From the IMG/VR virus record IMGVR_UViG_3300031088_000759: 64,000 nt of DNA, one strand, 5' to 3'. This document shows, piece after piece, positions 2,460 to 24,028 of this stretch. The position numbers and the translations under genes are program-made. How positions within the stretch are numbered: position 1 is the stretch's first letter; each line of letters starts with the position of its first letter. The notes below the pieces were generated by a model. The model was not told where the DNA came from. It saw only the letters and a program-made list of their open reading frames with translations, and searched no databases. This stretch comes from a virus.

Positions 2460-2578
2460 ACCCGTTATAGGGATTGAACCTATATCTATCATGCGCAGGT
2501 TAATTACGCCTGCGATTCCCCTCAACGTAGTACTCCGCGTCAGGGACAAGATTGTGTTTCCCAATTACACTAAACGGC
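2460..2578 (-). ncRNA. tRNA-like RNA with a branched domain replacing the anticodon arm
   Basis: Acceptor, D and T arms present; two extra hairpins in the middle. Confidence 0.55.
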
Positions 2579-2591
2579 TAAAGCCTATTTA

Positions 2592-2719
2592 CAGCACTTC
2601 GGCATAGGCTAACCAAATAACGAATTGAATGATAAAATTCCTGATTGAATATAATATTACCATTCTCCTTGTGCTTATTCACTACTGAAACCATATTCCC
2701 ATCAGACCTAATTGGTTTC
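2592..2719 (-). ncRNA. Multi-pseudoknot RNA 3' of tRNA-Met, copy 1
   Basis: Diverged second copy at 18833-18957 with compensatory changes. Confidence 0.7.
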
Positions 2720-2723
2720 GTCG

Positions 2724-2800
2724 TAGCGGAGGCCGGATTCGAACCGACGAAATACAGGATTATGAGACCTGCGTGTTAGACCTAACTTCACCACTCCGCA
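2724..2800 (-). tRNA. tRNA-Met(CAU), initiator-like 1:72 mismatch
   Basis: Loop CTCATAA. Confidence 0.85.
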
Positions 2801-3266
2801 ATGATTTATTCTCCAAAACTATATCAGAAAACAAATATTTATTTAATTATTCAAAATTTTGAACAATATAAAAACTTACAAAAACCTTTTCGGCTCCTAA
2901 AAGATTAGTGCTTTCTTCTAGAGTACTTCAAATTCTCATCTTAGTACTCTAGAAGAAAGCACCATATGCCTTATTTTTGTCCTGGTTAGGCTTCCAGTTT
3001 GGATGACCCTTAGTACACATTGAACTTATAAAAATAAATTTAACTATTCATACAGTATTCAACTTCCCGCGAAACCCTCTGAGATTCCATCCTCAAAGGC
3101 ATCCACCAGGTTTATTCAACCAGTCCGTGCGTTGGGGTTGTGAACTACACGACAAAGGAACTAAAAATATATAAAATTATCAAACAACTATCAATCATCT
3201 TGCTTTACTTGAATATCTTAACACATTAAAAAAATTTTGTCAACTATTGAAATCAATAAACCTTTA

Positions 3267-4289
3267 TCAAGAATTATCCACACGGCGCAATTTAATAATC
3301 AAGTCAGCAGTTACCCCACCTTTATCTTCGCCCCACTTGAATTCTTTGCCTTCTTCAAGACCTATAACTTCATAAGATGATTCAGGCAACAAAACTTCAA
3401 ACTCATGTTGATGTCTGCTCACACTACTCATAACACCACCTTTATCAGTTACAATCTCTAAAGCTACATTTTTTCCTTCAACAATTTTTCCATCTACAAA
3501 ATTATTCCCTCTCATGAAACCATTTGACTGAGCAGGATTAACAGAAGTTGATAAAGCTCTATCCAACTTAATTGTAGAGCCAATTTTTGGATTCTGCGCT
3601 AAGACAAGATCTCTCGTTTCGTAAGACAACCCTGAGAACACAGTCAAAGGCTCCTCAAACTTTGGAGACTTGTGTAACGCATTATTTAAATTCTTCACAA
3701 AAACTTCGTCTTTTTCAGAAAAACTTTTTGCATATTCGTCAGAACTACAAGAATATTTGAAGACAGACCAGGCTTCATCAGAAGAGCAATTACTAATCCA
3801 TTGTTCAGCAGCTTTATCCATATCATCCCACAAATCAGGCTGATCTTTCATCATTTCTTCAACATCATTGCCAAAACCAATTATACTATCACTGGTATGT
3901 ACAACTTTAGGTGCTCTGATTTTTACAGGCTTATTATTCAATTTTCCAGAATCATTAACATTATTAGGGATATAATCATTAAGAGTATTCTCTACTTTAT
4001 TCCTTAAATCAATCAATGATGATTGTTTAGGATCACTAAAAGGGGAAGTTCTGTTTTCAACAAACTCTTTCATAATTGCTTGATGTGTTCTGCCTCTAAC
4101 ACCTATTAAACGGCTAACTTCACTAATAGGATTTTCCATTTGTTTTTCATAGGCTTTTTGTGCCTCTTCTTTCGTGTCATAATGCTCAGCGAAATCATTC
4201 TTTTCGTAAGGACAATTGCCAAAATTAGCACGACAAATATTAGCATTACCAGTCTTAGGGTTGATGTGATAACGTTTAACAGATGACAT
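3267..4289 (-). CDS. ADP-ribosyltransferase-like (VIP2/Alt type) protein with N-terminal HCCH tag
   Basis: ALSTS and HEFEVLLP motifs; GGAG RBS before ATG 4289. Confidence 0.7.
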   Translation of the reverse strand: MSSVKRYHINPKTGNANICRANFGNCPYEKNDFAEHYDTKEEAQKAYEKQMENPISEVSRLIGVRGRTHQAIMKEFVENRTSPFSDPKQSSLIDLRNKVENTLNDYIPNNVNDSGKLNNKPVKIRAPKVVHTSDSIIGFGNDVEEMMKDQPDLWDDMDKAAEQWISNCSSDEAWSVFKYSCSSDEYAKSFSEKDEVFVKNLNNALHKSPKFEEPLTVFSGLSYETRDLVLAQNPKIGSTIKLDRALSTSVNPAQSNGFMRGNNFVDGKIVEGKNVALEIVTDKGGVMSSVSRHQHEFEVLLPESSYEVIGLEEGKEFKWGEDKGGVTADLIIKLRRVDNS

Positions 4290-4426
4290 AAAAGCTCCAT
4301 GAATAATTAAATAATATGTAAAACTATTTTCTAAACTATACAAGAGAAACAACAACTTGAGCACTATTTCGTCAAGTTGTTGTTTCTCTTTGAATGTATT
4401 TATGCTTCTAACTTCTTTTTAAAAGG

Positions 4427-4984
4427 TCAAGAATTATTAAGCTCTTCTAATTCTTGTTGTAGCTGTTTAATTTTTTCTTCACGGGCTTTTTTCTTATCAT
4501 CTTTAGACAAAGGACGAATCGCTGTGAAAATTGCATGATTGTATTTATCCCAATCAGCAAAACCTGCACCTTCAGTTTGAATATAATGATACTTCAACTT
4601 GTTATCCTTGGCAAACTTTTCAGCTTCTTTTCTTGAAAAAACTTCTTTACGTGTGTTAGCTTTAGTCTTAAATACAACCTCTTCACCTTTTCTGAAAGAA
4701 ACATAAGAACTGTATTTTTGCTTTATTTTATCAGCTGTGGTGTTCTTGATAATTCCAACATTCGGATATTTTTTAGCAAACGATTCTTGAACATTCGCTT
4801 TTCGTTCATCAAAAGAAATTGTTGAATAGTTGGCAAAAGTATTCTTATCGTTTTCTGCTTCATAAGCCGCACGTGCTTCTTCTTTGGAATAAAAATGTCG
4901 ATCATCACCACCACGAGGACATGCTTTGACTTCGGCTTTACATAATGCTGTATTGCCCGCTTCAGTAATATGGTATTTAGACAT
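4427..4984 (-). CDS. HCCH-tag hypothetical protein
   Basis: YHITE..C..C..HF N-terminus; AAGGAG RBS. Confidence 0.8.
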   Translation of the reverse strand: MSKYHITEAGNTALCKAEVKACPRGGDDRHFYSKEEARAAYEAENDKNTFANYSTISFDERKANVQESFAKKYPNVGIIKNTTADKIKQKYSSYVSFRKGEEVVFKTKANTRKEVFSRKEAEKFAKDNKLKYHYIQTEGAGFADWDKYNHAIFTAIRPLSKDDKKKAREEKIKQLQQELEELNNS

Positions 4985-5103
4985 AGAATACTCTCCTTAA
5001 AATTAGCTTATTAATTGATTTTCTAATCAATTAGTCAATATACTCTCGAATTACTGAGACACCAGGTTCATCAGATTCTTCTTCCCAAATCTTAAAATCT
5101 TCT

Positions 5104-5385
5104 TCAAAAGTAAGATCCTCTTCTTGAAGATATTCGTTCATTTTTTTCAAGAGCTTCAGAAACTTGATTTTTAACAAATTCAATATAAGACTCCCAATCG
5201 TATTGTTTAAATTGATCAGTTTCCAATTCAAGGAAATCACTATCCTCACCTTCACCACCAATACCATAAGGAAGCACATCAACTACCTCGGCATTTTGAC
5301 CATTAGTTTCAACAATTACATGGTAAATAAAAGTTTCCATACTATCATCCACACGTCCACCATCAAGCTTAAGTTTATGAATCAT
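5104..5385 (-). CDS. Hypothetical protein
   Basis: ORF track, co-oriented with neighbours. Confidence 0.6.
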   Translation of the reverse strand: MIHKLKLDGGRVDDSMETFIYHVIVETNGQNAEVVDVLPYGIGGEGEDSDFLELETDQFKQYDWESYIEFVKNQVSEALEKNERISSRRGSYF

Positions 5386-5430
5386 TTTTGATCAGCTTTC
5401 TTATAGAATTTGAACATTAATTAATAATAA

Positions 5431-5814
5431 TCACAAATAACTTTTCAACATTTCTACAAAAGCAAAGGGTAAACTGTCAAGACGTTTCTCTTCTCTACCA
5501 GTATGCGAAGAAAAAGCAGAAACATAAACAGCGGTGGAATACAGAACATCACAATTAAAAGTATATGCGCCATTAAAGATTTCGTACGTCAATATAACAG
5601 AAACAGACGTATTCTCTTGTCCATTTTTTACATAAACATTTTCTTCTATAACAGCTCGTGAAACATTAGACAAGTCAAAAGATTCACCATCTTGAACGAA
5701 AGCATTCATCAAAGAAAGATCCAAGATAGCCCGCCGCTCGTGTGAAGAACTGTTGCTGATTAAAGAAATAGTGCTATTGCGCTCATCTCTACATTTTCTA
5801 TCAATATTATTCAT
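5431..5814 (-). CDS. Hypothetical protein
   Basis: ORF track. Confidence 0.6.
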   Translation of the reverse strand: MNNIDRKCRDERNSTISLISNSSSHERRAILDLSLMNAFVQDGESFDLSNVSRAVIEENVYVKNGQENTSVSVILTYEIFNGAYTFNCDVLYSTAVYVSAFSSHTGREEKRLDSLPFAFVEMLKSYL

Positions 5815-5997
5815 GATTTACTCTTTTCCGAAATATATATTACGATAATTCAATCATAGCATATACAGCAAAGAACAGCAATGATGAGATTCTAATGTTG
5901 TCGATTTTATCGTTGATATGGGATATATTGTTCCTGGAACTATTCATGAACCTCAAAGAACAGTTGAAGAACACTTGAAGAAGTGGAAGAAATAATT

Positions 5998-7023
5998 TTA
6001 GGAGTTTCTTTTACGTCTTTTATGTTCAGGACACTTTTTTGAAATCCCATACCTTAATCTAATTCCACAATCAGAACAAACAGGATATGTCAAACAGACT
6101 TTTTCATGTCGTTTAATATTCATAGCTCCCATTAATTCATCGCAATGCTGACATTTTAGTTTTGTATTTATCATTGAATGTTCTTTACAAAATTTAACAC
6201 CTTTACGAGACAGTCTAACATTGCAAGTTTGACATTTAGGAAAACTTTCACAAGCTTTCTCATGTTGGTCTATAACAGAACTTTTAAACTCAACTTCACA
6301 AAAAGAACATTTTTTATACGAAGAAATTTTTGGAATTCTTTCTTTTTTAGCAACCGGAGTTCTTTTGCTATTTGCTAATTTTTGCGACTCTTTGACAGTG
6401 CGACGTGGAATCCCTAATCTTTTCATAATATTTAAAGCCTTAGTTCTACCAACACCTAATTTTTCAGCTAATTCTGGACGAGATAAACCCTGATTCCAAT
6501 AAAGATCGTAAATATAATCGTAGTTATATTCATTAGCAGATTTTTCTTTAACATACTCGGCTTGGCATTTACGTGAACAAAAAACTCTATTTTTAATTCT
6601 ATTATGAAAAACTTCATGACAGCCAGGGCAAATCAATTTTCTAAGCATATAGTTATTCTCAGAGGAAAGTTTTTGAAGATGAGTGTTTCTAATGTTATTA
6701 CGGGTTTCTTCTGAATGTTCCCACTTTTCGTTTAAAGACGGAATTTTCCCAAAATATTTAGGACTCATATTATTAAACCATTTGATTTCAAGAGTATTTA
6801 AAGTTTTATTATCATATTTACATTCTTCTAAAATACGAAATACAAGTAATTCAGGAATAGCACCATTAGCATGATACCACTCCACAAAATCTTTTCTTTT
6901 ATGTTTTTTACTTTTTAAGTCTTTCAAATGGTATTTCCAGCGCTGTTCAATGTTCTTTGACATACCAATATACAAGCACTCATCCGTCTTACTATCAAAA
7001 ATACCATAAATGCCAACAGTCAT
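5998..7023 (-). CDS. GIY-YIG homing endonuclease with NUMOD3/HTH/Cys-rich tail
   Basis: GIYGI..YIG..R..H..E; HSEETR; CxxC repeats. Confidence 0.85.
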   Translation of the reverse strand: MTVGIYGIFDSKTDECLYIGMSKNIEQRWKYHLKDLKSKKHKRKDFVEWYHANGAIPELLVFRILEECKYDNKTLNTLEIKWFNNMSPKYFGKIPSLNEKWEHSEETRNNIRNTHLQKLSSENNYMLRKLICPGCHEVFHNRIKNRVFCSRKCQAEYVKEKSANEYNYDYIYDLYWNQGLSRPELAEKLGVGRTKALNIMKRLGIPRRTVKESQKLANSKRTPVAKKERIPKISSYKKCSFCEVEFKSSVIDQHEKACESFPKCQTCNVRLSRKGVKFCKEHSMINTKLKCQHCDELMGAMNIKRHEKVCLTYPVCSDCGIRLRYGISKKCPEHKRRKRNS

Positions 7024-7126
7024 AAAAATAGCCCCTAACTTGAAATACTCATATTAAGTATTATACCAAGTCAAAGGCTATTTTTATCATTTTTTATAAA
7101 ATTATTTTATTAAAATTTTAATACTA

Positions 7127-7205
7127 TGGCGACCACGACGGGACTCGAACCCGCAACCCTCGGAGAGACAATCCGATACTCTAACCAAAATTGAGCTACG
7201 CGGCC
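7127..7205 (-). tRNA. tRNA-Asp(GUC), CCA encoded
   Basis: Loop TTGTCTC. Confidence 0.9.
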
Positions 7206-7372
7206 ATAATGAACAAATCCTTTTCCCTAAGATTCATTCTAAAATCCGATATCTTTTACCAATATCAGAACTGTAACTATTTTGCAGAACAGTTAGGAAA
7301 AACAGCGGAAACAGTTAGTAGGGCAAACTTTTACGTTTCCTATGTAATTCGGGCTGCAACCCGTCCCTACCG

Positions 7373-7448
7373 CGATCACGATGGGATTTGAACCCACGAT
7401 CCCCAGCTTGACGAGCTGGTGCTTTAAGCCATGCTAAGCTACGCGACC
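7373..7448 (-). tRNA. tRNA-Asp(GUC), C33
   Basis: Loop TCGTCAA. Confidence 0.8.
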
Positions 7449-7541
7449 ATTTTTATATAAAATTATCAAAACTTCTAACAACCTTACATAAATTATTATA
7501 TCAAACTTTTTCAAACTTGTCAAGTAAATGAAAACTAACTA

Positions 7542-7664
7542 TCAAAGTTCTTCTAATTCTTGAATATCATCATCAGTTAGTTCAATCTTCTTGTCAAAAA
7601 GACGAACATCAGACTTCAAAGCATTGTCTAAAATTTCTTTACCTAAAACTTTATCAATATTCAT
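7542..7664 (-). CDS. Small acidic protein (40 aa)
   Basis: MNIDKVLGKE...ELEEL; AAGGA RBS. Confidence 0.5.
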   Translation of the reverse strand: MNIDKVLGKEILDNALKSDVRLFDKKIELTDDDIQELEEL

Positions 7665-7812
7665 ATATTATCCTTTTCAATAAATATTAAAAAATGCTTT
7701 CCCTCGCTTGTTTTCTCTTAGGAAAATTCACCTGCTAAGGCTTTTTTGCTAAACCTTTCGCTGATTCTAAAAACAAGAAAACCAGTTTCATCTATTTAAC
7801 AAACATTTTTCG

Positions 7813-7892
7813 TAGTTTTCCCAAGATTCGAACTTGGATCTCCTGACGCCCTAATAGGTTAGTCAGTTGCTCTTGCCTCAAGCTAGAAAACT
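7813..7892 (-). ncRNA. tRNA-like RNA with an extended anticodon arm and no 7-nt loop
   Basis: 7-bp acceptor, D and T arms; CTGAC-TAA-CCTATTAGG-GC-GTCAG. Confidence 0.6.
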
Positions 7893-7894
7893 AT

Positions 7895-7989
7895 GGGCTA
7901 GAGACTTCATGGTAGCGACCCACGAAGGATTAACATTTAAAGACCATGCTCCAGCCGTTCACGCTCTACCTTTTTCAAGGCTATTAACT
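7895..7989 (-). ncRNA. Duplicated pseudoknotted RNA, copy 1 (copy 2 at 10064-10160)
   Basis: Shared GCCTTGAAAAAGGT, TTAAATGTTAA and GGGTCGC motifs, with covariation. Confidence 0.6.
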
Positions 7990-8069
7990 CGTTCTTCACC
8001 TAATCTTAATGGTGCCTAATGACTATCACGTCAACAGAGGGCTGAGACCACAAGAATCAAAGAACAAAG

Positions 8070-8151
8070 TAGCTCCGGAGGGACTCGAACCCTCACACCT
8101 CTCGATACTTGATTTTGAGTCAAGCGCGTCTACCAATTCCGCCACAGAGCC
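8070..8151 (-). tRNA. tRNA-Leu(CAA)
   Basis: Loop CTCAAAA, long variable arm. Confidence 0.9.
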
Positions 8152-8354
8152 ATATGTGGGATAATTTGTGTGAAGCGTAAAATACCGCAACTTTTGTTTC
8201 TCCCGTATCCGGCAAGTACAGTGCTCAACTGTTGAAACTATACCGAAAAACTATAAGAATTTTTTGTTCTTAACCGTTTCGCTAAGTTTTGTAATTCTTG
8301 TTAAATCCGACTACTTAACCATTCGTTAAGCTTGCCGAAAACTTAAAACATTTA

Positions 8355-8546
8355 TCAAATCTCCATTGCAAAAGCATTATGGCAAGAAACACACAACCAA
8401 TGGTTGCTATCATCGTGATTCTTTTCTTCTTCCCAAGGGTTAGGTTCATAACTCACGGTATTTCTTGATGAACCCATACCTTCAATCCATACCGGCAAAA
8501 GTTTCTTACAATACTCGCAATGTCTATAAATATATGTTTCAACCAT
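8355..8546 (-). CDS. Small CxxC..CxxC protein, paralog of 9692-9898
   Basis: CEYC..P.EE..D...HWLC..C..MEI; AAGGAG RBS. Confidence 0.7.
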   Translation of the reverse strand: MVETYIYRHCEYCKKLLPVWIEGMGSSRNTVSYEPNPWEEEKNHDDSNHWLCVSCHNAFAMEI

Positions 8547-8694
8547 TATAATCTCCTTAAAATAAATAACATTACTAACATTCTTTTGTTATTCATCATA
8601 TTTATTTCAAAGAATTCATGAATCATAAAACTATTGTTTTTTATTCACTTATCAAATATCTTTAACTTACAAGAACAACTATAACACTATATAA

Positions 8695-9429
8695 TTATTT
8701 TGTCAAGTCTTGTGCCATCACATGCGGACAACCATTCGCAAAAGTAGATTTATAAACAATTCTACCACAACTACAATAACCATTCTTCGTGCTATCACTA
8801 TTTTTAGTATTACCATACGTTTCTGTTTGTGTATGACAATTAGCACATAAAAACCTTAAATTTTCAAATCTATTGTCAGTGCTCTCACCATTAATATGAT
8901 CAACCTGCAGAGTTATACGTTTACCACGCCACTCAGCTTTTTCATGTAGAATACAATCAACCATTGAACAAACGTATTTTACACCTTTATCCAGCATACG
9001 GTTTCTTAAAGAAACGCCACTGTGTGAAGTATCAATAGCAAAAAATTCTTCATCAGACAATCTACGTATTTTTCCAATTCTTCTGTTTGAACTAACCGCA
9101 TCATATTTTGGTAATTCAATTTTATAAAGTTTAGACAAATAACGTATTTGTTTATATCTATAGTTTTGAATTTCTGAATAGCCCAGATTTCGAATTACTT
9201 CAACAATGCTATTCGAATTACTAACAGCTTCTTGAAATTCTTCTTTTGAAATCGAATTCTTAGGTTTTTCAAAAGAAATATTTAACTCTGATATATATTT
9301 AGCAAATGATAAAGTTGATCGTGACAAACCAAAACTCCTAGCAAAAGACTGCATGGAACTATATTGTTTACTCAACTCAATAAAATCATCTTTTGGTATC
9401 TGTTTCCAATCAGGATTTTTACTTGCCAT
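8695..9429 (-). CDS. HNH homing endonuclease
   Basis: LQVDHING..DNRFENLRFLCANCH. Confidence 0.9.
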   Translation of the reverse strand: MASKNPDWKQIPKDDFIELSKQYSSMQSFARSFGLSRSTLSFAKYISELNISFEKPKNSISKEEFQEAVSNSNSIVEVIRNLGYSEIQNYRYKQIRYLSKLYKIELPKYDAVSSNRRIGKIRRLSDEEFFAIDTSHSGVSLRNRMLDKGVKYVCSMVDCILHEKAEWRGKRITLQVDHINGESTDNRFENLRFLCANCHTQTETYGNTKNSDSTKNGYCSCGRIVYKSTFANGCPHVMAQDLTK

Positions 9430-9567
9430 TTTCTCTCCATTCAATAATTTACTATTAAAAGTATTTTATCAAATAAAATTATGAAATGACTATTTTTAAC
9501 GACTATATTATACAATAAATTAAAATATTTATTAATTTCAAAAACCAGCGCTGAACTGGTCTTATCG

Positions 9568-9642
9568 TCGGGATACTCGGATTTGAACCGAGAGTCTCCG
9601 CATCCCAAATGCGGCGGATTAACCAAATTTTCCTATATCCCG
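9568..9642 (-). tRNA. tRNA-Pro(UGG)
   Basis: Loop TTTGGGA. Confidence 0.9.
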
Positions 9643-9691
9643 AAATTGAGCACATTTTTTAACGTGGTTAAAACTCATTCCACAATAATTA

Positions 9692-9898
9692 TCAAATCTC
9701 CATCCGCGAATTATAGTAGCAATCATCACACAACCAATGGTCAGTGAAATCACCACGAATTTCTTCATTAAATGGATCAGGACGATAAGAAATCGTATTT
9801 TGAACAGTGCCATTATACGAACGCTTTATACCTGAGCCGTTATTTGGAGCAATCGGATAAACATTCTCACAATATTCACAAACATGTGTTTTAATCAT
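9692..9898 (-). CDS. Small CxxC..CxxC protein
   Basis: Paralog of 8355-8546 with the same upstream region. Confidence 0.7.
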   Translation of the reverse strand: MIKTHVCEYCENVYPIAPNNGSGIKRSYNGTVQNTISYRPDPFNEEIRGDFTDHWLCDDCYYNSRMEI

Positions 9899-9985
9899 TA
9901 TAATCTCCTTAAAAATAAACAAAATGTTTTTTAACATTCTTTTGTCATATTCAATAATGCTTATTTTTGAAAGATTTTATAATCG

Positions 9986-10059
9986 TAGTCCTGGAGGGAT
10001 TCGAACCCACAACACACTGATTCTTAGTCAGCGTCCTCTACCAGTTGGGATACAGAACC
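9986..10059 (-). tRNA. tRNA-Leu(AAG), short variable arm
   Basis: Loop CTAAGAA. Confidence 0.8.
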
Positions 10060-10063
10060 AAAA

Positions 10064-10160
10064 GGCCCTGAGACTTCACGGTTGCGACCCGTAAAGGATT
10101 TAACATTTAAAACACACGCTCAGTCCTAATCGTGTATTACCTTTTTCAAGGCTGTTTAAC
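10064..10160 (-). ncRNA. Duplicated pseudoknotted RNA, copy 2
   Basis: See 7895-7989. Confidence 0.6.
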
Positions 10161-10331
10161 AAAAAATGGAAAAGATAAAAATGCTTGGACAAACCCGAAA
10201 GTTCATGCCCCAAAACATTCTACTGAAAATGTTCCGCGATACACCACAAGCCCATTTGGACCCCGCCAGCCGCGACACTGGCACCTTTATCTCATCCCTT
10301 GCTAAACCGTTCAGTAATTGATTTAACAAGT

Positions 10332-10416
10332 TGGTAGGCACGGTGAGATTCGAACTCACGAAGACTTAACACTACTTTATCAGAGTAGCCCCTTTGAACC
10401 GCTTGGATACGTGCCT
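10332..10416 (-). tRNA. tRNA-Ile(GAU), long variable region, CCA encoded
   Basis: Loop CTGATAA. Confidence 0.8.
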
Positions 10417-10739
10417 ATAATTTTTCATTCACTATTATATTATCAAAAAAACTTTATCTTACATTTAGATTATATCAAACTTTTTCTTTCTTGTCAAGTC
10501 AGCGGATAAATTATTTACTATCAATTTCCTTCTTGACACTCACTACTATACTACACTTAATATCTTTTGTCAAATCCAATCTCGTTATCGCTCTGGATAA
10601 TTCCTCAACTTCGTTCAACAATGTATACTGTATCAAACTTTTTTCTGCATGTCAAGTTTTCTTGTTAGATAGTTTTCATTAACAAAGAGAGCATAGCAAG
10701 AATTTTATCCCACTATGCTCCCGAATGTTAAAAAGAATT

Positions 10740-11318
10740 TCAACGAGGTTCTTTGTCGAAAAGTTCATACATCTCCTGAGCCTTATCATACGCATTATTA
10801 GCGCTAACTTTATGCGAAGCTTGAACAAAGAGTCCATCTTCATCTTCCAAATAAACAGAATATGATTTATCTTTGTCTTCCACAACTCTTACAGAATATT
10901 CTACTGGAATGTGCCCTGATTCATCCATATGTTCTGAAATTTTATTTCTTATATCTTCGTTAATTTTCGATGATTGCTTACCTAAAATCAAATCTTTTCC
11001 AACATCACCATAATCAAAATGTTTAATATGTTTTAATTGTTCAGCATCATCTTTGCTGTTATTCATCAACTGTTCGAACTCATACCCTTTTGGATGTTCA
11101 TAGATTGAAGAAGATAATTCCAGTGATTGTTTTGCTTTTTTGAAAGAAGCTATTTTGTCATACTTTTCAGAGAGAATTTTTTCATTTGCAGAATTTGCAT
11201 CATTAATATTGTCAAAATGGTTTTCTGATTTGCTGACAGGACATTTTTCAGAAGTTGTGGTACATCTTCCCACTTTATTTGAAAAATTGATGTGATAACT
11301 GCTTTTTTGCTTTGCCAT
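10740..11318 (-). CDS. HCCH-tag hypothetical protein
   Basis: YHINF..C..C..HF N-terminus. Confidence 0.8.
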   Translation of the reverse strand: MAKQKSSYHINFSNKVGRCTTTSEKCPVSKSENHFDNINDANSANEKILSEKYDKIASFKKAKQSLELSSSIYEHPKGYEFEQLMNNSKDDAEQLKHIKHFDYGDVGKDLILGKQSSKINEDIRNKISEHMDESGHIPVEYSVRVVEDKDKSYSVYLEDEDGLFVQASHKVSANNAYDKAQEMYELFDKEPR

Positions 11319-11506
11319 TGCTTGCCCCTCTGGATTTGTATTGTTGTACTAATTATCCAAATAGATTCTATAACGCAAAACGAAGAGAGCACAACAAGAA
11401 TATTATCTCGCTGTGCTCCCGAATGTTAAAACATAATATCAAACTTCAACAATTTTGTCAAGATATCCAAAATATTGTCCGCTGTTTATAGAATGTATAA
11501 TTTTTA

Positions 11507-12325
11507 TTACTTTTGCGTGTGTTTATAATCTGTAAAATATGCTTTTATTATATTGGTATGAGCACCGTTTTTAACAAAAGCGACACCTGTTTTATCATTA
11601 ATATGTTCAATATTATGTTGAGTAAAAAACTTATTAATATTAGGACTATTGTAAAAAGCTACTTCACGCGATGATGGAAAAAGTTCAACATAATCAAAAG
11701 TTTGCGAGGACAATATAATTGTTTTATTAAAAGATTTTAAAATTCTGTAATCCATCGTTAATAATTCTCGAAATTCTTCCGAAAGATGACTATAATGTGG
11801 TAAACTATCTAGGATAAGAAACTTTGTTTTGTCATGCTGACCGACTACGTTTGATCGCACAAAATTAAATAGTGCTTCAGTTATGTAGTCGATATCATCT
11901 TTGTGAAAGTCAAAGTATTTGTATTGATTTTTGTTATTTTTTAAATTCTCGATAAATGTATTGATAAATATGCTTTTTCCTATTCCTGTCATTCCTGTGA
12001 CATGAACGAAGGGAGATGTGTTTTCATTATCTATTTTCCAATAATAATTTTTATTATCAATTCCTAAGCCTAAATTGATTTGACCCTTTGTTTTATTTTT
12101 CTCTAGTCTATGAAATTTCATTAATCGTGAAATTTCATAGTTCGAGTATTTGCCAATATTCATTGCATTTCGTATGCTAGTGTCTTCTATACTTCCAGGT
12201 TTAATGTTAATTTTAAATCCTTCTTTGCGAAAAATAGGATCTTTGGAAATGATTCTTATCGTATTTGTCTTATTGTCTAAAACTGCTTTCACATTGTGTA
12301 AATCAATAATCTTGTTTTTTGACAT
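11507..12325 (-). CDS. P-loop NTPase (FtsK/HerA-like)
   Basis: GMTGIGKS Walker A, LILD Walker B, SSQ. Confidence 0.6.
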   Translation of the reverse strand: MSKNKIIDLHNVKAVLDNKTNTIRIISKDPIFRKEGFKINIKPGSIEDTSIRNAMNIGKYSNYEISRLMKFHRLEKNKTKGQINLGLGIDNKNYYWKIDNENTSPFVHVTGMTGIGKSIFINTFIENLKNNKNQYKYFDFHKDDIDYITEALFNFVRSNVVGQHDKTKFLILDSLPHYSHLSEEFRELLTMDYRILKSFNKTIILSSQTFDYVELFPSSREVAFYNSPNINKFFTQHNIEHINDKTGVAFVKNGAHTNIIKAYFTDYKHTQK

Positions 12326-12432
12326 ATTATTTTTCCTTTTCTATTATTTTTTATGTAGATGGGCTGGAGAATGCCAGTTCATAATAAAATCTTTTCTATG
12401 TTACTTAAATGATGTTAAAGAATTGAAGAAAT

Positions 12433-12585
12433 CTATCGAAGTTTAGAACCTTTTTCTAATCGTTCTCTCTCACGCTTAGCACGCCTTTGCTTCTTAGCTT
12501 GCTGAATTTTTCGTTCTTCAGGATCATTTCGTAAAAATTCAGCATATTCAACATACATCTCATCAAGCGATTTTTCGTTATTCAT
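12433..12585 (-). CDS. Small basic protein (50 aa)
   Basis: Hand-read ORF overlapping the stop of the upstream gene. Confidence 0.5.
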   Translation of the reverse strand: MNNEKSLDEMYVEYAEFLRNDPEERKIQQAKKQRRAKRERERLEKGSKLR

Positions 12586-12947
12586 TCAAATACTCCATCA
12601 ACCCAATCGTATTTTTTCACACGATTTTTTTCAACTCTTTCTTCTTCCATATTCAGCAAATCTTCAGCAAGATTTTTTAAACAGTTTTCTACAGAACCAT
12701 AGGTTTTAAGATTATCCATTGATACGCTGTATGAAACAGTACGTTGCCAAAAACCTAAAATATTCTTTTGTAATTCAAGCTCAAAAACAAGTGTTTCTTC
12801 TCTGCTCACTTTAAGTTTCCAGCGGTAATCTTTACGAAGCTCGGGAAGTAAAGACATAATATCTTCTTCCATCACTCGTTTGTAAAGCGTTTCTTTCTGT
12901 TCTTTATTGTATGATGGAACTAAAATCTTTTCAGCCATGTTCATCAA
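12582..12947 (-). CDS. Hypothetical protein
   Basis: ORF track, translationally coupled. Confidence 0.7.
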   Translation of the reverse strand: MMNMAEKILVPSYNKEQKETLYKRVMEEDIMSLLPELRKDYRWKLKVSREETLVFELELQKNILGFWQRTVSYSVSMDNLKTYGSVENCLKNLAEDLLNMEEERVEKNRVKKYDWVDGVFE

Positions 12948-13339
12948 CTTTCATTAGTAGTATCTTTGTGCGATTCTTTTCCTACACTTTTCATAGCTTT
13001 AAGAATCAAGTCTACATCATCTCCATCAAACTCCCAGCTTAAAGCGATTCCGTAATCTTCGCCTAATTGAGAAATTTTGTTTTTCAATTCTTGTCTTTCA
13101 GGGTCTTCTTCAAATCCCGACAATATTACCTTACTATGATACCATTTTCCAGTGTAATTCTCAGCTTTTTCAATAATTTCTTTCATTTCTTGAATATTTG
13201 GCAAATCATAATGAATAATTTCAGAATCTTCATCAATGGTGCGTAGTTCATTGAGCAATTCGTCAATTTCTTCTTCACTACATTCATGATTTGGGGCACA
13301 AGTAGAGACTCTTCGTACTTTTTCAGTCATATATATCAA
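12944..13339 (-). CDS. Hypothetical protein
   Basis: ORF track, RBS. Confidence 0.7.
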   Translation of the reverse strand: MIYMTEKVRRVSTCAPNHECSEEEIDELLNELRTIDEDSEIIHYDLPNIQEMKEIIEKAENYTGKWYHSKVILSGFEEDPERQELKNKISQLGEDYGIALSWEFDGDDVDLILKAMKSVGKESHKDTTNES

Positions 13340-13444
13340 CCTCTTTTAAATAGGTGCTTAAAAATTTAATAAGCATTTATTTACTATGAATTTGTTGATC
13401 TATTTATCAATCTCATTTGACCTCATGCCAAAAGTTCTGTGAAT

Positions 13445-14125
13445 TCACCAACCGAAATCTACTGGAACATAGACTTGTGATTGTGGTCTAATAAATTCTT
13501 TTGTTCGTGGTTTAAGAACATCTGATTCTGTTACACGAATAAGTAATCTCCAACCTGTTTTATCAGCCGGAATAGCACGGTGAACATTCCACCAGTCCCA
13601 TGAAACCCAAGCATCACTCAAAGAAACAACATCAAGTTTACTTTCTTCTACTAGAGGATTGACTTTTTGGGTCAACTCTTTGTACAAGTCAGGATTGTCA
13701 AAGTTTTCAATGTCTAATTCAAAAGGTTGGTTAACAAATTCAGTAGGTGAATCTAAACCTACAGAAATAACGTGATAATGTGGCGCAATTTCTGGCAATT
13801 CTGCTTGTTTGTCTAAGCGAGGTTTTCCCTTAGCATCAGGAAGCAGCTCTTCGCCACGCGGAACACCATCTGTGTGCCAACCAGGGATGGCAGGATACCA
13901 ACCAGGCATAAGTAATGTAACCTTTGTGTCAACTGTTATGTAGTTTTTATCCCCGACTAATGGAACAGTTTCTAAAAGTTCACGCATCAAAGGTCCACCA
14001 TACATGACAGCATTTTCTAAAGATGGACGGCGTAATACAGGAGTTGACTCCACCGCTTCCCCCGAAATATTTTCAACAACTTTTTCGTGAATAGTAATAG
14101 GGTTTTGGCTGAATACGAATTTCAT
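13445..14125 (-). CDS. 2OG-Fe(II) dioxygenase-like protein
   Basis: WHTDG (HxD), VHRA, WRLLIRV. Confidence 0.7.
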   Translation of the reverse strand: MKFVFSQNPITIHEKVVENISGEAVESTPVLRRPSLENAVMYGGPLMRELLETVPLVGDKNYITVDTKVTLLMPGWYPAIPGWHTDGVPRGEELLPDAKGKPRLDKQAELPEIAPHYHVISVGLDSPTEFVNQPFELDIENFDNPDLYKELTQKVNPLVEESKLDVVSLSDAWVSWDWWNVHRAIPADKTGWRLLIRVTESDVLKPRTKEFIRPQSQVYVPVDFGW

Positions 14126-14212
14126 AAATAATCACCTTTTCGTAGAATTGATAGTTGATAGTGAATTTTAAGAATCACATTGATTATTATATCAACTCAT
14201 CAGAAATATTGT

Positions 14213-14473
14213 TTAAATGTCCCTGTTATTGTTCTTGTTATATTTATGAACAAGATTATATCCTTCTTGAACATTGCTGAAATCTATTCCATATCCAAAT
14301 CCGTCATAGCGCTCATCAAATCTTCTATCAGTAGGACCATTGTCACCTGTCTCGGTGGTATATATAAAGTTTTCTTCATATTTGGGGCATTTTTCGTCAT
14401 CATCGTATAAAGCTACGTCAAGATCATTAGCATTACAAAAAATACACCTTCCGCCTTGATAAACATGGTTCAT
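14213..14473 (-). CDS. Hypothetical protein
   Basis: ORF track; likely start MNHVY. Confidence 0.55.
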   Translation of the reverse strand: MNHVYQGGRCIFCNANDLDVALYDDDEKCPKYEENFIYTTETGDNGPTDRRFDERYDGFGYGIDFSNVQEGYNLVHKYNKNNNRDI

Positions 14474-14710
14474 AATATAGTTATCTTTCTTAAACGTATA
14501 AATGTAATTCAAAAGTAAAAAGGAAACAGTAATAGAGTTAATTAAGTTCTATGTATTTTTACAACACTCCTGTTTCACAAGTGTCAAGATGGATCTCCCA
14601 GCTCTATCCATCTGATCACATGATTGGCTTCTCCTCGCAAGACAATAACGTTTGTTGCTAAGTATCTTAAGTTTTTAGAACAAATATTATCGAATTACTA
14701 TGTGATTCCG

Positions 14711-14780
14711 AGCGGGCGAGAAGAATCGAACTTCTACTTTCAGCTGGTCTGCTGATGTTCTACCATTAAACTACTGCCGC
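14711..14780 (-). pseudogene. Gly-like tRNA with a 6-nt loop (AGACCA)
   Basis: D and T arms intact, imperfect acceptor. Confidence 0.55.
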
Positions 14781-15112
14781 ATAACGCCCGTGGGGATACA
14801 CAGGCGGGCTTTTTAACAAGTTTAGCAATAATCCCTTATCTAACTCATTCTACGCCACCACAGCGCGTTCTATCAAGTTCTATCGCGTCCTCTGACTTGG
14901 TAAGAACTAAGATGCTGGTTATGAGTCATACATCTATTGTCATAGAAACATAAATTATCTTATCACAAAAACAAGATAATGGTGAATATAGTTTTTCATC
15001 TAATCCAATAGCCAGCAGGAATCGAACCTACTTACACCACCACTATTAAATCCATATAGTTAGCCTATTCCAAGATTATCCGTGATTAAATCAGAACTGT
15101 GTACCAGTGTTG

Positions 15113-15239
15113 AGCTTAATCGGACTCGAACCGCGTTCAAAGTGTTCCACTAAGAACTCACCATTCCGCTCATGCCAATAGTCATCAACTATCTGCATCA
15201 AAATCAACAAAGATTAGCTATTTCTTTGTCAATCAAGCT
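15113..15239 (-). ncRNA. T-arm-containing multi-helix RNA
   Basis: AGCTTGAT/ATTAAGCT closure, CGG-TTCGAGT-CCG. Confidence 0.45.
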
Positions 15240-15283
15240 TTATATTGTAGAAACTAAACCCTTATTCAAAGTTTAACATCCAT

Positions 15284-15631
15284 TCAGTTTTTGAGAAATA
15301 CACCAGGTTCGGGTAATTCATCAGGCATCAATTCGGCAAAATCGCATTCTTCTGTAATGATTGTTCCATCAGCCAACTCGATATCTCTGTAAAGAATAGC
15401 TGAATTATCCGAATAAGCGGATAGAACCTCTCTCTTGCCATCACGAACATCATTTAATACGTTTTCATCAACTTGTGAGAAGAGGAACAATGGACCACCA
15501 AGAGAACAGTCAGCATAAGAGCTAAAATAATATTGCTTTTTATTCTCATCCTCTAAAACACCTACTTGAGGTCCATCATAATAAAACCATGTTTCAAGAA
15601 GTTTCATATCATCTTTATTAAACATAAACAC
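15284..15631 (-). CDS. Hypothetical protein
   Basis: ORF track. Confidence 0.7.
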   Translation of the reverse strand: MFMFNKDDMKLLETWFYYDGPQVGVLEDENKKQYYFSSYADCSLGGPLFLFSQVDENVLNDVRDGKREVLSAYSDNSAILYRDIELADGTIITEECDFAELMPDELPEPGVFLKN

Positions 15632-15660
15632 CTGATTCTTTTAGTCAGTTATAAAAACTA

Positions 15661-15780
15661 GAAACACACCGGGGATTCGAACCCCGCTCAGATTCATTAG
15701 ACCAGTTACCACAGCCGGATTTATCCCACTGCAAGGGACTCAAACCCTATTCTTTCACTTTCGCCAATTTCGTGCATTTC
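15661..15780 (-). ncRNA. Double-T-loop RNA
   Basis: 9-bp closure enclosing two T-arm hairpins. Confidence 0.5.
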
Positions 15781-15861
15781 GTCCAAAGGATTTCTTGAAC
15801 AACCATGAATGATCAGTTCATGTCATTTCACAAAGTTTTGAACCTTCATGAAATACCTACG

Positions 15862-15933
15862 CGATTCTATGGAGACTCGAACTCCAATGACCGGATCGAC
15901 AATCCAGCATAATAACCTTTATATGATAGAACC
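15862..15933 (-). tRNA. tRNA-Asp(GUC)
   Basis: Loop TTGTCGA. Confidence 0.85.
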
Positions 15934-16009
15934 ATGTTTGACAAAATCAATTATTACATAAAATATAAATTTTGTCAAACTTTATACAACTTCTAGAATA
16001 CGAAACTCA

Positions 16010-16348
16010 TCACTTCATGATGTCTGACATCTTCACACGGTGCTCAACAATAAGCTCATCAGCCCTATGCTTAGTTCCAAAATCTCCCCAACCAGAATGA
16101 TTGAACATAACACGAACAGTAAGAGCACCATTAGCCTTCAGCTTAAAATTAGGAAAGACAAAGAAATACCCACCGAAATCCTGGTAATCCTTATCGTCAA
16201 TCAGACGAACATGATTCTCGAGATTCTTCTTTACCTTATTGATAAGAACATTCTTCTTTACCTTAATCTTCTTTGCCTCCGCAACAGTCATGTCATCCGA
16301 CACAACCAGTTTAGCAAGATTCTTCTCAAAGACTGCCTTGTTCATCAT
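16010..16348 (-). CDS. Hypothetical protein under a putative NAD+-II riboswitch
   Basis: ORF; start moved to 16348 on SD spacing. Confidence 0.75.
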   Translation of the reverse strand: MMNKAVFEKNLAKLVVSDDMTVAEAKKIKVKKNVLINKVKKNLENHVRLIDDKDYQDFGGYFFVFPNFKLKANGALTVRVMFNHSGWGDFGTKHRADELIVEHRVKMSDIMK

Positions 16349-16358
16349 TCTAACCATT

Positions 16359-16394
16359 CTCCTTGTTTTTTCTCCGGCGTAGGAATAACCCGGA
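16359..16394 (-). promoter_or_regulatory. Mini-NAD+-II-like riboswitch, copy 1
   Basis: TCCGG-GTT-ATTCCT-ACG-CCGGA-GAAAAAAC-AAGGAG; same motif precedes pnuC. Confidence 0.7.
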
Positions 16395-16484
16395 CTTTTT
16401 ATCTTTCTTGTTATGTTTTAATAATACCATAAAACATAAATTTTGTCAAACTTTTCAAAACTGTTCATTATAAACTTTTAAATC

Positions 16485-16877
16485 TTAAACAGTAGTGTAA
16501 ACTGTTGTAGTAGTCTTCTTCTCCAAAAGTTCAACAATCTTCTCATCAGGGATATAGAAATTCCTATATTCCCAATCAATAATTTCCATACCGAAACCAA
16601 AAACCTGAACATCCTCATCATTCTCACGAAGACAAATCAAAGCAATATTCTTGTCATATCCAAAAATACTCTCTTCATCTTCAACAACCCACACCTGATA
16701 ATGACGACCACTCTCAGTGTAAACATCCATAAAATCTTCAAAAAGAAAAACCTTAGAAAGCTCACTGAACGTTTCAACAGACTTTGAAGGCTGATAATCA
16801 TCAACAACCACAGTTACAGAACTATTGATCAAATCATTATAGACATCATCCGCTGAAATTTTTGTGAACTCTGGCAT
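16485..16877 (-). CDS. Hypothetical protein
   Basis: AAGGAG RBS, own promoter. Confidence 0.75.
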   Translation of the reverse strand: MPEFTKISADDVYNDLINSSVTVVVDDYQPSKSVETFSELSKVFLFEDFMDVYTESGRHYQVWVVEDEESIFGYDKNIALICLRENDEDVQVFGFGMEIIDWEYRNFYIPDEKIVELLEKKTTTTVYTTV

Positions 16878-16973
16878 TGCCTTCTCCTTGAGATGATTTT
16901 ACTTTTCAAAAGAAGCATACCACATTTAACAAATAGTGTCAAATAGTTTTCACGGATTTAACAAATTATTACC

Positions 16974-17456
16974 TTAAAGTGGTAAAGAAACTTGCTCTTG
17001 TTCAGTCTCAGAAAAAATTATAATTTCCAAACTATCTTCTGTAAAATAGAACTTTCCTTCAATGTACTTATCCTCTGAAGAAATTCCATGAAAATCAACC
17101 GCACTCCCGTTAAACATAGCATCAGTTGTTTCGTCATTCTCTAGATAATCAATATTGTCAAGTTCTGTTTCTTCTTTAAGAAGTCCTAAAATCTTGTCCC
17201 TGTCAATATGAATTTCTTTAAAAGTTTTGGGTTCTGCATAATAGTTTTGAATTGTAACGGGCGTATCAGAAGCTATCTTTACAGGACTATTGAAAGCAAC
17301 TGCTGTAATTATAATTACAGCTACAATACTTGCTCCTCCTACCAAAAGCCCGCTAAGCTCATCTAAATCATGAAAAACAAAAATAAGTATAATGACAATA
17401 GGGATAATAATAACAACAGGTAGAAGCCATTCAGGTAACCATTCAATACTAAACAT
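16974..17456 (-). CDS. Membrane protein with two TM segments
   Basis: Likely start MFSIEWLP; hydrophobic N-terminus. Confidence 0.7.
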   Translation of the reverse strand: MFSIEWLPEWLLPVVIIIPIVIILIFVFHDLDELSGLLVGGASIVAVIIITAVAFNSPVKIASDTPVTIQNYYAEPKTFKEIHIDRDKILGLLKEETELDNIDYLENDETTDAMFNGSAVDFHGISSEDKYIEGKFYFTEDSLEIIIFSETEQEQVSLPL

Positions 17457-17535
17457 TTTACAATCCAACTTTCGCTTTGACAGATAAAAAGAAAAGTGAA
17501 AAATACGATATAAACAAATGGTGTTTTTCACTTCG

Positions 17536-17722
17536 TGGCAGGTAATGGATTCGAACCACTCCAGCATTTCAAAGAGATCAACCTCTGAAACAATCAAACT
17601 AAACACATTTCATTACTGAACATCAGGTACCTTAATGTTCTTTAACTACTTTTGTATTCCCGCTTGATTTAGTGCAACTATCTGACCGATAGCCTCTGCT
17701 TCACCACGCAAAGCAACCTACC
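17536..17722 (-). ncRNA. Giant tRNA-like RNA (187 nt) with an inserted multi-helix domain
   Basis: GGTAGGT/ACCTGCC-A acceptor, D arm, T arm. Confidence 0.65.
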
Positions 17723-17779
17723 ATATTAAACATTTCCATCAATTGCTCAATAATCAGATCAACTATTATTCAACAATCG

Positions 17780-17863
17780 TGCGGATGAGAGGACTCGAAC
17801 CTCCACGCTTTTACCAAGCACCAGGGCCTAAACCTGACGTGTCTACCATTTCACCACATCCGC
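17780..17863 (-). tRNA. tRNA-Leu(UAG)
   Basis: Loop TTTAGGC. Confidence 0.9.
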
Positions 17864-18280
17864 AAAACAATGGAATAAGGATAGTTAATCCCGCACCATC
17901 ACATACCATCAATTGTCAGCGTTCAAGGATTACAAGTGCTCTACAATTGTTTTACAGCAGGTATTTACCGAGTCTCAGAAACTACCTATATGGATCTTCA
18001 CAGTGCCATATTACTGACCAAGGAACAACCTTGATAAAACTATACTAACATAGATAAGAATATTTGTCAACTCATGTTGAGAGAATCTACGAGAGGTTAT
18101 AGCAATCCACACAATGCTTTGTTAAGGGATGAGAAATCGTTTTTGAACAATCTACACTTATTATTGTTTCGTGCTTTCTGGGACCGCTGTGAGGCTTTTA
18201 AAAACAAAAAAGTGCCGATTATGATGGAGAAAAGATTTGAGAATAAATTTAAACCATTAACCATAATCGGCACTTTTACG

Positions 18281-18361
18281 CGGAAGGCACGAGGCTCGAA
18301 CTCGCAACCCTATCGGGCATCTCCGTAGCAAGGAGACTGCTTTCCAATTCGCTTACCTTCC
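18281..18361 (-). tRNA. tRNA-Ser(GCU)
   Basis: Loop TTGCTAC. Confidence 0.85.
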
Positions 18362-18517
18362 ATAATTCGTAAAGCGCGTATTCTTTAACAAGGGCGCTAC
18401 CCCCGGAACCTGGCTTTACTTTTTCAGGTTTTGTGTGCTCAAAGCCTTTGCTCTGAGCCTCAAAGATTAGAGAAGCCCGCTTTTATCCAAAACTTAATTT
18501 GGAAGCCAGCCTCTCAG

Positions 18518-18591
18518 TACCCCGTACCAGATTCGAACTGGTGTCAATTTGAGTGAAAATCAAATATCCTAGGCCGCTAGATCAACGGGGC
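18518..18591 (-). tRNA. tRNA-Glu(UUC)
   Basis: Loop TTTTCAC. Confidence 0.9.
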
Positions 18592-18832
18592 GTACATTAT
18601 TCACGTTAACTAACTTTTAACTAATAATTCTTAAATATCCACCGTCCCAAACCTGAGACACGCACCGTAGTGATACGACAATTTCAATTTAAGCAAATCT
18701 CTATTTTATTTTTTCAACAAGTTTATTCTAACATATTAAAATAATTTTGTCAAATTATACTAACTTTTGAAAACCTATCCATGAACATTATTTACACAGA
18801 GGGAATAGGTGTCTAACAAAAAATCCTATTTT

Positions 18833-18957
18833 TAGCACACTGGCATAGGCAACCAGTTAACTAATTGATTATTAAAATTCCTGCTTGAATGTATTTTTAA
18901 TAATCTTCTCGTGCTATTAACAACTGAAACTAACTTCCCAGCAGACCTATTAGTTTC
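18833..18957 (-). ncRNA. Multi-pseudoknot RNA 3' of tRNA-fMet, copy 2
   Basis: See 2592-2719. Confidence 0.7.
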
Positions 18958-18961
18958 TTCG

Positions 18962-19035
18962 TAGCGGGAGCAGGATTCGAACCTGCGACCTCTTGGTTAT
19001 GAGCCAAGCGAGCTACCGAACTGCTCCACCCCGCG
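18962..19035 (-). tRNA. Initiator tRNA-fMet(CAU)
   Basis: CGCGGGGTGGAGCAG start, loop CTCATAA. Confidence 0.9.
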
Positions 19036-19106
19036 ATGTTTTACATACTTATCTTATCAAAGAAATATTGTTTTGTCAAATGTTTTAAAACTTTTCTTCA
19101 ATATCG

Positions 19107-20265: not shown

Positions 20266-20273
20266 AAGGTTTA

Positions 20274-20627: not shown

Positions 20628-20635
20628 GTGTTTTA

Positions 20636-24020: not shown

Positions 24021-24028
24021 CCGCTTTG

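Follow-up and report, generated by a model that had tools for sequence, protein, structure and literature searches.

Precursor tRNAs that lack an encoded CCA end are cut behind A73 by an RNase Z-type activity, and RNase P cuts at the 5' end of the next tRNA. In phage T4, two stable RNAs of ~120-140 nucleotides (nt), RNA C and RNA D (species 1 and 2), are cut from the tRNA cluster transcript. Other structured RNAs have been found close to phage tRNAs. Theta ribozymes adopt a nested double pseudoknot similar to that of hepatitis delta virus (HDV), carry a catalytic cytosine in J4/2 and cleave at most 5 nt from the tRNA end (PMC10879173). GOLLD and ROOL RNAs form cages, one GOLLD RNA (env-38) lies downstream of a Met-tRNA, and a kissing loop of ROOL predicted from covariation turned out to be intermolecular (PMC12286853). 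manA RNAs, originally described as riboswitch candidates in 5' untranslated regions (5'-UTRs; PMC2864571), form 8-, 10- and 60-mers via intermolecular kissing loops, and tRNA goes unmentioned in the available text of the respective preprint (10.64898/2026.07.01.735769). Here, we describe a ~135-nt non-coding element located 4 nt behind A73 of both tRNA-Met(CAU) genes in a 64,000-nt stretch of viral DNA (IMG/VR record IMGVR_UViG_3300031088_000759; hereafter the window). The element is a selected folded RNA on the tRNA strand. It constitutes a family of multi-pseudoknot RNAs that had not been described before and that belongs to the known kind of non-coding RNAs from phage tRNA arrays.

The window is part of a 727,572-base phage-like contig and, as its sequence suggests, likely stems from a giant phage; it contains no capsid gene over its 64 kb. 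The sequencing run that matches it best is labelled phyllosphere metagenome and may represent its source. Within the first 30 kb, there are 58 tRNA genes (62 in the intron mode of ARAGORN), all on the minus strand. About 60 of these 62 tRNAs do not encode CCA, the exceptions being those for Asp at 7127 and Ile at 10332, and only two carry the anticodon CAU. The two units comprise the following features:

2723-2800, minus strand: tRNA-Met(CAU) A, initiator-like, with a U1·U72 mismatch, A73 and CCA not encoded; 49.5 bits, somewhat aberrant
2584-2719, minus strand: element copy A, 136 nt, covarying fold
2458-2579, minus strand: tRNA-Gly(CCC)-like gene, 32.7 bits, its anticodon loop expanded by an insertion of ~48 nt that is rich in hairpins
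2818-2826, minus strand: extended -10-like motif of unit A (TG-A-TATAGT), 17 nt before tRNA A, read by eye
18961-19035, minus strand: tRNA-Met(CAU) B, initiator-type, with a C1·U72 mismatch, A11-U24, A73 and CCA not encoded; 61.3 bits
18825-18957, minus strand: element copy B, 133 nt, covarying fold
18818-18823, minus strand: six-T run directly after copy B, a possible transcript end; the terminator scan called nothing
19051-19079, minus strand: promoter-like site of unit B (TTGACA-17-TAAGAT with TG extension), 15 nt before the tRNA, a match to the sigma-70-type consensus only

The first base of the opening helix, P1, lies at 2719 in copy A and at 18957 in copy B, and the spacer after A73 reads CGAC and CGAA, respectively. 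An initial annotation of this DNA had placed the elements at 2592-2719 and 18833-18957, 4 nt after initiator-type tRNAs. These coordinates and the spacers agree with our results; in addition, conservation extends beyond the given 3' limits to 2584 and 18825 (AAATAGG). The description of both tRNAs as intact is generous for A, in which the initiator pair A11-U24 is replaced by U11-A24 and the anticodon stem includes a U·U pair. Copy A exactly fills the gap between two tRNA genes (2580-2722), and the tRNA-Gly-like gene starting at its 3' end (2579) would fix its 3' boundary. Copy B is followed by the T-run and then by a new promoter-like site. No open reading frame (ORF) is common to both copies, neither of them is followed by an ORF or a called terminator, and a third copy is absent from the 64-kb window.

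The two loci are 78% identical in the element, compared to 70% in the tRNA; over 60 nt, the identity is 63% ahead of the tRNA and 42% behind the element. Since the similarity reaches upstream into the promoter region, where the -10-like motif of unit A occupies the place matching the -10 of unit B (the promoter scan gave no call), both copies represent one promoter-tRNA-RNA unit that was duplicated once. The placement behind both Met tRNAs therefore provides no independent evidence for a Met-specific job. This pattern also bears on the idea that the element is a selfish or relic insert at tRNA-Met 3' ends, whose structure is kept for mobility. tRNA 3' ends are common insertion targets, the sequence CCGCTACGA is identical at both tRNA-element junctions, and homing endonucleases abound in the array. 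However, the upstream extension of the similarity points to the duplication of a whole unit, and terminal repeats, an ORF and a third copy are lacking in the 64 kb analyzed, so that we regard an insert of this kind as very improbable.

Listing and then counting all helices common to both copies yielded eight helices with 47 base pairs (bp), which are intact in A and B alike. They form a 5' hairpin (P1), a long arm, a 3' hairpin (P4) and up to three pseudoknots, with the following coordinates on the minus strand:

P1, A 2719-2713/2693-2687, B 18957-18951/18932-18926: 7 bp, 1 compensatory change
L1-L4 pairing, A 2710-2706/2609-2605, B 18949-18945/18850-18846: 5 bp, no changes
L1-L3 kiss, A 2705-2701/2645-2641, B 18944-18940/18885-18881: 5 bp, 1 compensatory change
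P2, A 2682-2677/2625-2620, B 18921-18916/18865-18860: 6 bp, 1 compensatory change
AGCAC/GTGCT helix, A 2675-2671/2597-2593, B 18915-18911/18838-18834: 5 bp, no changes, crosses P2
P3, A 2665-2657/2635-2627, B 18905-18897/18875-18867: 9 bp, 3 compensatory changes
P3b, A 2650-2647/2640-2637, B 18890-18887/18880-18877: 4 bp, no changes
P4, A 2617-2612/2603-2598, B 18857-18852/18844-18839: 6 bp, 2 compensatory changes and one wobble change
3' tail, A 2588-2584 (ATAGG), B 18829-18825: second invariant partner of L4

All helices named in the initial annotation recur in this fold, including the loop pairing that changes from CTGAT/ATCAG to CTGCT/AGCAG by one compensatory change (the L1-L3 kiss), the invariant TAGGT/GCCTA pairing (L1-L4) and the AGCAC/GTGCT helix, for which the crossed helix turned out to be P2. 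Hairpin P4, by contrast, had been overlooked; its strands read TTTGGT/GCCGAA in A and ACTGGT/GCCAGT in B, and those of P2 GTGAAT/ATTCGT and GTTAAT/ATTAGT. A helix CAGT..AAT/ATT..CTG that extended into P4 was dropped, as it clashes with the better-supported P4. The invariant unpaired bases comprise GGGAA in L1, an AGT and the purines of an AG.A motif.

The two copies differ by 27 substitutions, 17 of them in paired columns, and 16 of the latter constitute eight compensatory pairs; none of the 47 pairs is broken. Because the structure was drawn from these same sequences, the helix search was re-run on three sets of 2,000 null alignments, one obtained by shuffling columns and the other two by random substitution of copy A and of copy B, respectively. 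The null alignments contained 1.3-1.5 compensatory pairs on average and 5-6 at maximum, and not one of the 6,000 reached the observed number of eight. In the counting tool's own shuffle, 3 of 500 alignments reached the observed value, which is about the floor for two sequences, and sliding the helix partners by 1-3 columns leaves 0-1 compensatory pairs. The covariation of the stems, asserted in the initial annotation, is thus borne out, and P1, P3 and P4 are secure. Moreover, the fold includes six G·U pairs in A and four in B, which turn into A·C mismatches on the opposite strand; they fit the tRNA strand only, and the RNA is therefore read in the tRNA sense. A neutral remnant of tRNA duplication without selected structure would be compatible with the presence of other duplicated flanks in the array and with the folding energy of copy A, which is unremarkable compared to shuffled sequences (z -0.64; copy B shows a strong z of -3.17). 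However, this explanation is largely refuted by the eight compensatory pairs without a single broken one and by the fact that the element is better conserved than the tRNA itself, leaving it a negligible likelihood.

A comparison with the described systems reveals similarities but no identity. Searches against Rfam returned nothing for the element at the gathering level and, with 326 and 363 bases around the copies, only noise at E<=10; no family matches, and the novelty of the element stands. Like manA, which occupies the same position immediately after an initiator tRNA-Met in L288, L292 and L293, three contigs of relatives, the element is shorter than 200 nt, opens with a 5' hairpin and continues into a body of several helices whose loops are complementary. 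However, manA is longer (~190 versus 135 nt), its closing GGGAG/CUCCC helix is absent from the element, and the order of helices is unlike. Its conserved internal loop CUGAAUAA has counterparts inside P2 in the form of GUGAAUAA in copy A and GUUAAUAG in copy B, the latter not keeping the motif, and the manA model (RF01745; cut-off 55.2 bits) matches neither copy at E<=10. GOLLD (RF02032) and ROOL resemble the element as RNAs of phage tRNA islands that are rich in kissing loops, and GOLLD is even found in the same array behind a tRNA. Yet both are several times longer and show no sequence or model match to the element, which does not span several hundred bases; the sole GOLLD match in the window is located at 23263-23691. 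For RNA C and RNA D of T4, compared by description, there is no annotated-phage sequence match, and the T-arm and CCA end are absent here. The riboswitch models in Rfam (SAM classes, T-box and others) gave no aptamer match, and a downstream gene with an expression platform is absent, since copy A precedes a tRNA-like gene and copy B the T-run and the promoter-like site.

With theta ribozymes, the element shares its phage origin, its position a few bases from the 3' end of a CCA-less tRNA and its pseudoknotted fold. It differs from them in that its first helix is a local hairpin and in its length, which exceeds that of the 56-nt theta example in PMC10879173 more than twofold. A descriptor of the HDV-like nested double pseudoknot, run without a positive control, gave no match starting 0-8 nt from either tRNA end, and elsewhere none in A and three loose matches in B only. 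The covarying fold has no such double pseudoknot and no equivalent of the catalytic J4/2 cytosine. None of the Rfam ribozyme models (HDV-like, hammerhead, hairpin, twister, twister-sister, pistol, hatchet and glmS) matched at E<=10, and the core motifs of other small ribozymes were absent or not common to both copies, apart from the trivial NGUC. A theta or HDV-like identity was therefore rejected, in agreement with the initial annotation. Taken together, these sequence and model comparisons indicate that the element is not a theta ribozyme, manA, GOLLD or one of the listed riboswitches.

It is still conceivable that the element represents a new class of small self-cleaving ribozymes that cut exactly where the tRNA ends or slightly beyond this point and thus do the job of theta with a different fold. 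Both tRNAs lack an encoded CCA, and the compact multi-pseudoknot fold with its invariant unpaired bases is reminiscent of small ribozymes. A G opens P1 in both copies, 5 nt after A73. A polynucleotide kinase/phosphatase encoded in the window (51720-52877) could heal a cyclic phosphate, although it is a standard tRNA-repair enzyme as well. In both copies, the distance of 4 nt from A73 falls within the ±5 nt of the theta definition; however, a cut before P1 would leave four extra bases, whereas 77% of theta sites are located at most 1 nt from the tRNA end, according to the same report (PMC10879173). Furthermore, the element follows only two of the ~60 CCA-less tRNAs in the array and none of the nine initiator-type tRNAs in five related records (L288, L292, L293, G001 and G002). 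In view of these findings and the silence of the ribozyme models and the descriptor, we consider self-cleavage unlikely.

Relatives of the element were sought in a variety of collections. BLAST searches of INPHARED returned five and two records, covering at most 34% of the query at E>=0.01, and a search of PLSDB with copy B only yielded one record (28%, E 0.4). A first pattern scan of IMG/VR gave no matches. In a second IMG/VR scan, none of the 120 stretches listed out of an estimated 260 (30 of 64 parts) contained the rest of the element, and none of the 8 and 12 matches to a third and a fourth pattern was real. Among the CCA-less Met tRNAs of IMG/VR, 120 were listed out of an estimated 470, and none of their 109 distinct trailers matches the element. 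A further pattern was found neither in JGI metagenomes nor in GTDB genomes, and a looser one gave no full match among 119 GTDB hits listed out of an estimated 260; the first, third and fourth IMG/VR patterns and the one used for JGI and GTDB were verified to match both copies in the window. A covariance model (R1), which was built from two sequences and thus gives rough E-values and is insensitive to distant relatives, recovered only copies A and B from 88 sources (1.01 Mb). Its weak matches L326/L363, L316, L366 and L498 were discarded, as they have no adjacent tRNA and do not keep the fold; L498 sits inside a 757-codon ORF. Similarly, a descriptor of the fold topology that ignores sequence recovered both copies but gave no match in other loci totaling 1.40 Mb, and a profile hidden Markov model search retrieved no homolog. 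The motif is not described in the literature searched, and four of its short motifs are absent from the searched supplements of the large viral RNA survey PMC10690425, the remaining files of which could hold it. Parts of the array are represented by contigs of close relatives in runs X2 and X3 and in the RNA runs X22 and X23; no listed run piece covers copy B, which is not evidence either way and, for two soil RNA runs of one study, would be explained by the loss of short RNAs.

Close relatives are indicated by 12 versions of the marker protein with 59-83% identity; marker protein identity is 60% for G001 and ~35% for L288, L292 and L293. Behind the initiator tRNAs of G001 and G002, there are plain hairpins. 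In L288, L292 and L293, one initiator tRNA-Met is followed, 6 nt further on, by manA (RF01745; cut-off 55.2 bits), with a tRNA rather than an ORF behind it in L288 and L293:

L288, 8288-8468: manA, 72.0 bits
L292, 7646-7827: manA, 75.1 bits
L293, 7944-8126: manA, 71.9 bits

In addition, another CAU tRNA is followed by signal recognition particle RNA in L288 and L292, tRNA-Cys by an RNase P class A-like RNA in related arrays (77-81 bits, below the cut-off), and GOLLD also occurs in the arrays of L288, L292 and L293. Because related arrays thus place known free non-coding RNAs behind tRNAs, the punctuation of the array could free the element as well.

By analogy, we favor the view, with a probability of roughly 0.45, that the element belongs to a new family of small stable RNAs freed by tRNA processing. 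The promoter of the initiator tRNA would likely drive transcription of both the tRNA and the element behind it. RNase Z or a similar endonuclease would then cut the CCA-less precursor behind A73, and the 3' end of the element would be generated by the RNase P cut at the next tRNA in the case of copy A and at the T-run in the case of copy B. The product would likely be a free, presumably stable RNA of ~140 nt, which is predicted to be closed into a compact knot by its loop-loop pairings. It is tempting to speculate that the kissing loops may also pair between molecules, giving rise to small RNA-only oligomers, and that the RNA may serve as a scaffold or as a protein or RNA decoy during infection. 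The oligomer step is the weakest link in this chain. L1 offers two adjacent docking strands, and one acceptor loop has two donors: in both copies, L1 and the 3' tail AUAGG are alternative partners for loop L4 (GCCUAU), which may provide spare valency. The calculated energies of the L1-L3 kiss are -5.7 (A×A) and -7.7 kcal/mol (B×B), compared to -2.9 and -3.1 kcal/mol for the cross-pairings, so that the kiss is predicted to be copy-specific, with pairing of like copies favored by ~3-4 kcal/mol over pairing of unlike ones.

Several observations weigh against a released stable RNA with this architecture. The fold statistics derive from two sequences and are below R-scape grade. A single covariation supports P2 and another one the L1-L3 kiss, and since chance gives ~1.3-1.5 compensatory pairs per alignment, either helix could be false; the changes in L1 and L3 are lone substitutions within otherwise invariant blocks, and the L1-L4 pairing and the AGCAC/GTGCT helix, being invariant, receive no covariation support. 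RNAalifold favors a nested three-way junction closed by AGCAC/GUGCU and devoid of P2 (-23.8/-22.7 kcal/mol) over the form with P2 (-15.3/-12.5 kcal/mol, plus ~-8 kcal/mol for the crossing helix), although adding the crossing helix to the latter brings both forms to similar predicted energies. A model of a single molecule can accommodate all kissing pairs, and no homolog was found in the searched collections. The comparison with what occupies the same slot in relatives is one of analogy, not homology, given that the manA carriers are distant (~35%). Finally, to our knowledge, not even manA or GOLLD has been assigned a function.

The two near-equal folds and the two partners of L4 could also represent the states of a cis-acting module on the precursor, such as a ligand- or protein-dependent switch or an exonuclease roadblock, which gates initiator tRNA maturation or downstream read-through. 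Consistent with this idea, the three-way junction and the loop-to-3'-tail pairing are reminiscent of the topology of flaviviral exonuclease-resistant RNAs, in which the 5' end threads a ring closed by a loop-tail pseudoknot and 5'-3' decay is stopped. However, neither an ORF nor a called terminator lies downstream, the riboswitch models are unmatched, and the four possible helices of at least 5 bp between tRNA and element are weak, rich in G·U pairs and without covariation. In the rest of the array, the loops have only five perfect 9-nt complements, which are scattered and of which none is common to both copies. We thus consider a cis-acting role quite unlikely, and mechanisms beyond those discussed here account for only a small share of the probability. 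The initial annotation had proposed a new ribozyme or ligand-binding RNA. The part of this proposal that stands is the new, multiply knotted RNA; a ribozyme or ligand-related role is not the best reading, because ~60 other CCA-less tRNAs in the array and nine initiator tRNAs of relatives lack the element, cleavage where P1 begins would retain four extra bases on the tRNA, and no ORF follows either copy.

The array contains additional structured RNAs and mobile genes, including several HNH and GIY-YIG endonucleases and the following RNA:

23263-24027, minus strand: GOLLD RNA, with the Rfam match at 23263-23691 and a putative 5' extension up to tRNA-Ser at 24028-24108

The GOLLD RNA, which appears to be ~765 nt long, lies directly behind tRNA-Ser(GGA) and has a tRNA-like piece inside (23548-23618). 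GOLLD contigs of 601 and 624 nt, with one difference each, are present in two soil RNA-library runs of one study, possibly through DNA carry-over. The tRNA-Gly(CCC)-like gene at 2458-2579 shows a G·G mismatch in its acceptor stem, and the intron mode of ARAGORN also called long insertions at 17535-17722 and 21530-21839. A unit of pseudo-tRNA and tRNA-Val forms a tandem duplicate (20270-20627 and 20632-20996, 72% identity). Five non-tRNA stretches of the array (14984-15220, 7676-7815, 28372-28511, 28167-28315 and 623-700, minus strand) are 78-87% identical to G001, match no Rfam family and are likely to be further unnamed non-coding RNAs; the stretch at 7676-7815 begins directly after a tRNA-like gene in the window and G001 alike. 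Also inside the array, a 365-residue protein is encoded (3267-4364, minus strand) that has no Pfam or PHROG match; a distant homolog carries PF03496 (ADP-ribosyltransferase), and family members occur on 670-830-kb contigs.

The rest of the window contains replication, tRNA-repair and nicotinamide adenine dinucleotide (NAD) genes with phage-family matches. A tRNA/NAD gene cluster at 51720-63789 encodes polynucleotide kinase-phosphatase, a NadR-like protein, PnuC, Thg1 and YqeY. Elsewhere, there are genes for NucS (30334-31089), a SpoU methylase (42072-42641), a signal peptidase, and PASTA and NlpC/P60-G5 proteins; the signal peptidase, PASTA and NlpC/P60-G5 sequences, among others, hint at a Gram-positive host.

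Other trailers of Met tRNAs were observed in related and unrelated records. Behind the second initiator tRNA, L288 (2181-2265), L292 (1853-1937) and L293 (2049-2133) share a four-way junction of ~85 nt with four compensatory pairs in three sequences. One of its loops, UUCGAG, is T-loop-like, another one, CCUAGG, is palindromic, and one arm is D-loop-like. Its arm order recalls Y RNA-like (YrlA) RNAs, and it has no Rfam match. A conserved non-coding trailer without an Rfam name follows the elongator tRNA-Met of the same records (L288, 3482-3620; L292, 2943-3080; L293, 3240-3380). In the IMG/VR records L229 and L275, Met-tRNA trailers that are otherwise unlike each other both hold CTACCCGGCA and TCCGGCAGACCTGAGAACGA, possibly parts of another unnamed motif.

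Few compact natural RNAs are known to contain three crossing helices, and the majority of such folds proved to be ribozymes, riboswitches or self-assembling particles. That the element is a new triple-pseudoknot RNA enzyme or an RNA-only assembly is a tentative reading, which we hold at well below even odds. If it were an enzyme, it would be the first non-HDV self-cleaving ribozyme to free a tRNA 3' end. If it were an assembly, a 135-nt RNA would build cages by docking one loop to two others, and the swap of just one base pair of the kiss would allow two paralogs to self-sort. In either case, the two copies provide a built-in compensatory mutant pair. Since manA sits behind an initiator tRNA without a gene after it, its label as a 5'-UTR riboswitch candidate is doubtful. 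More broadly, these findings suggest a wider pattern, in which the tRNA arrays of giant phages may use tRNAs, notably the initiator tRNA-Met, as leaders for free structured RNAs.

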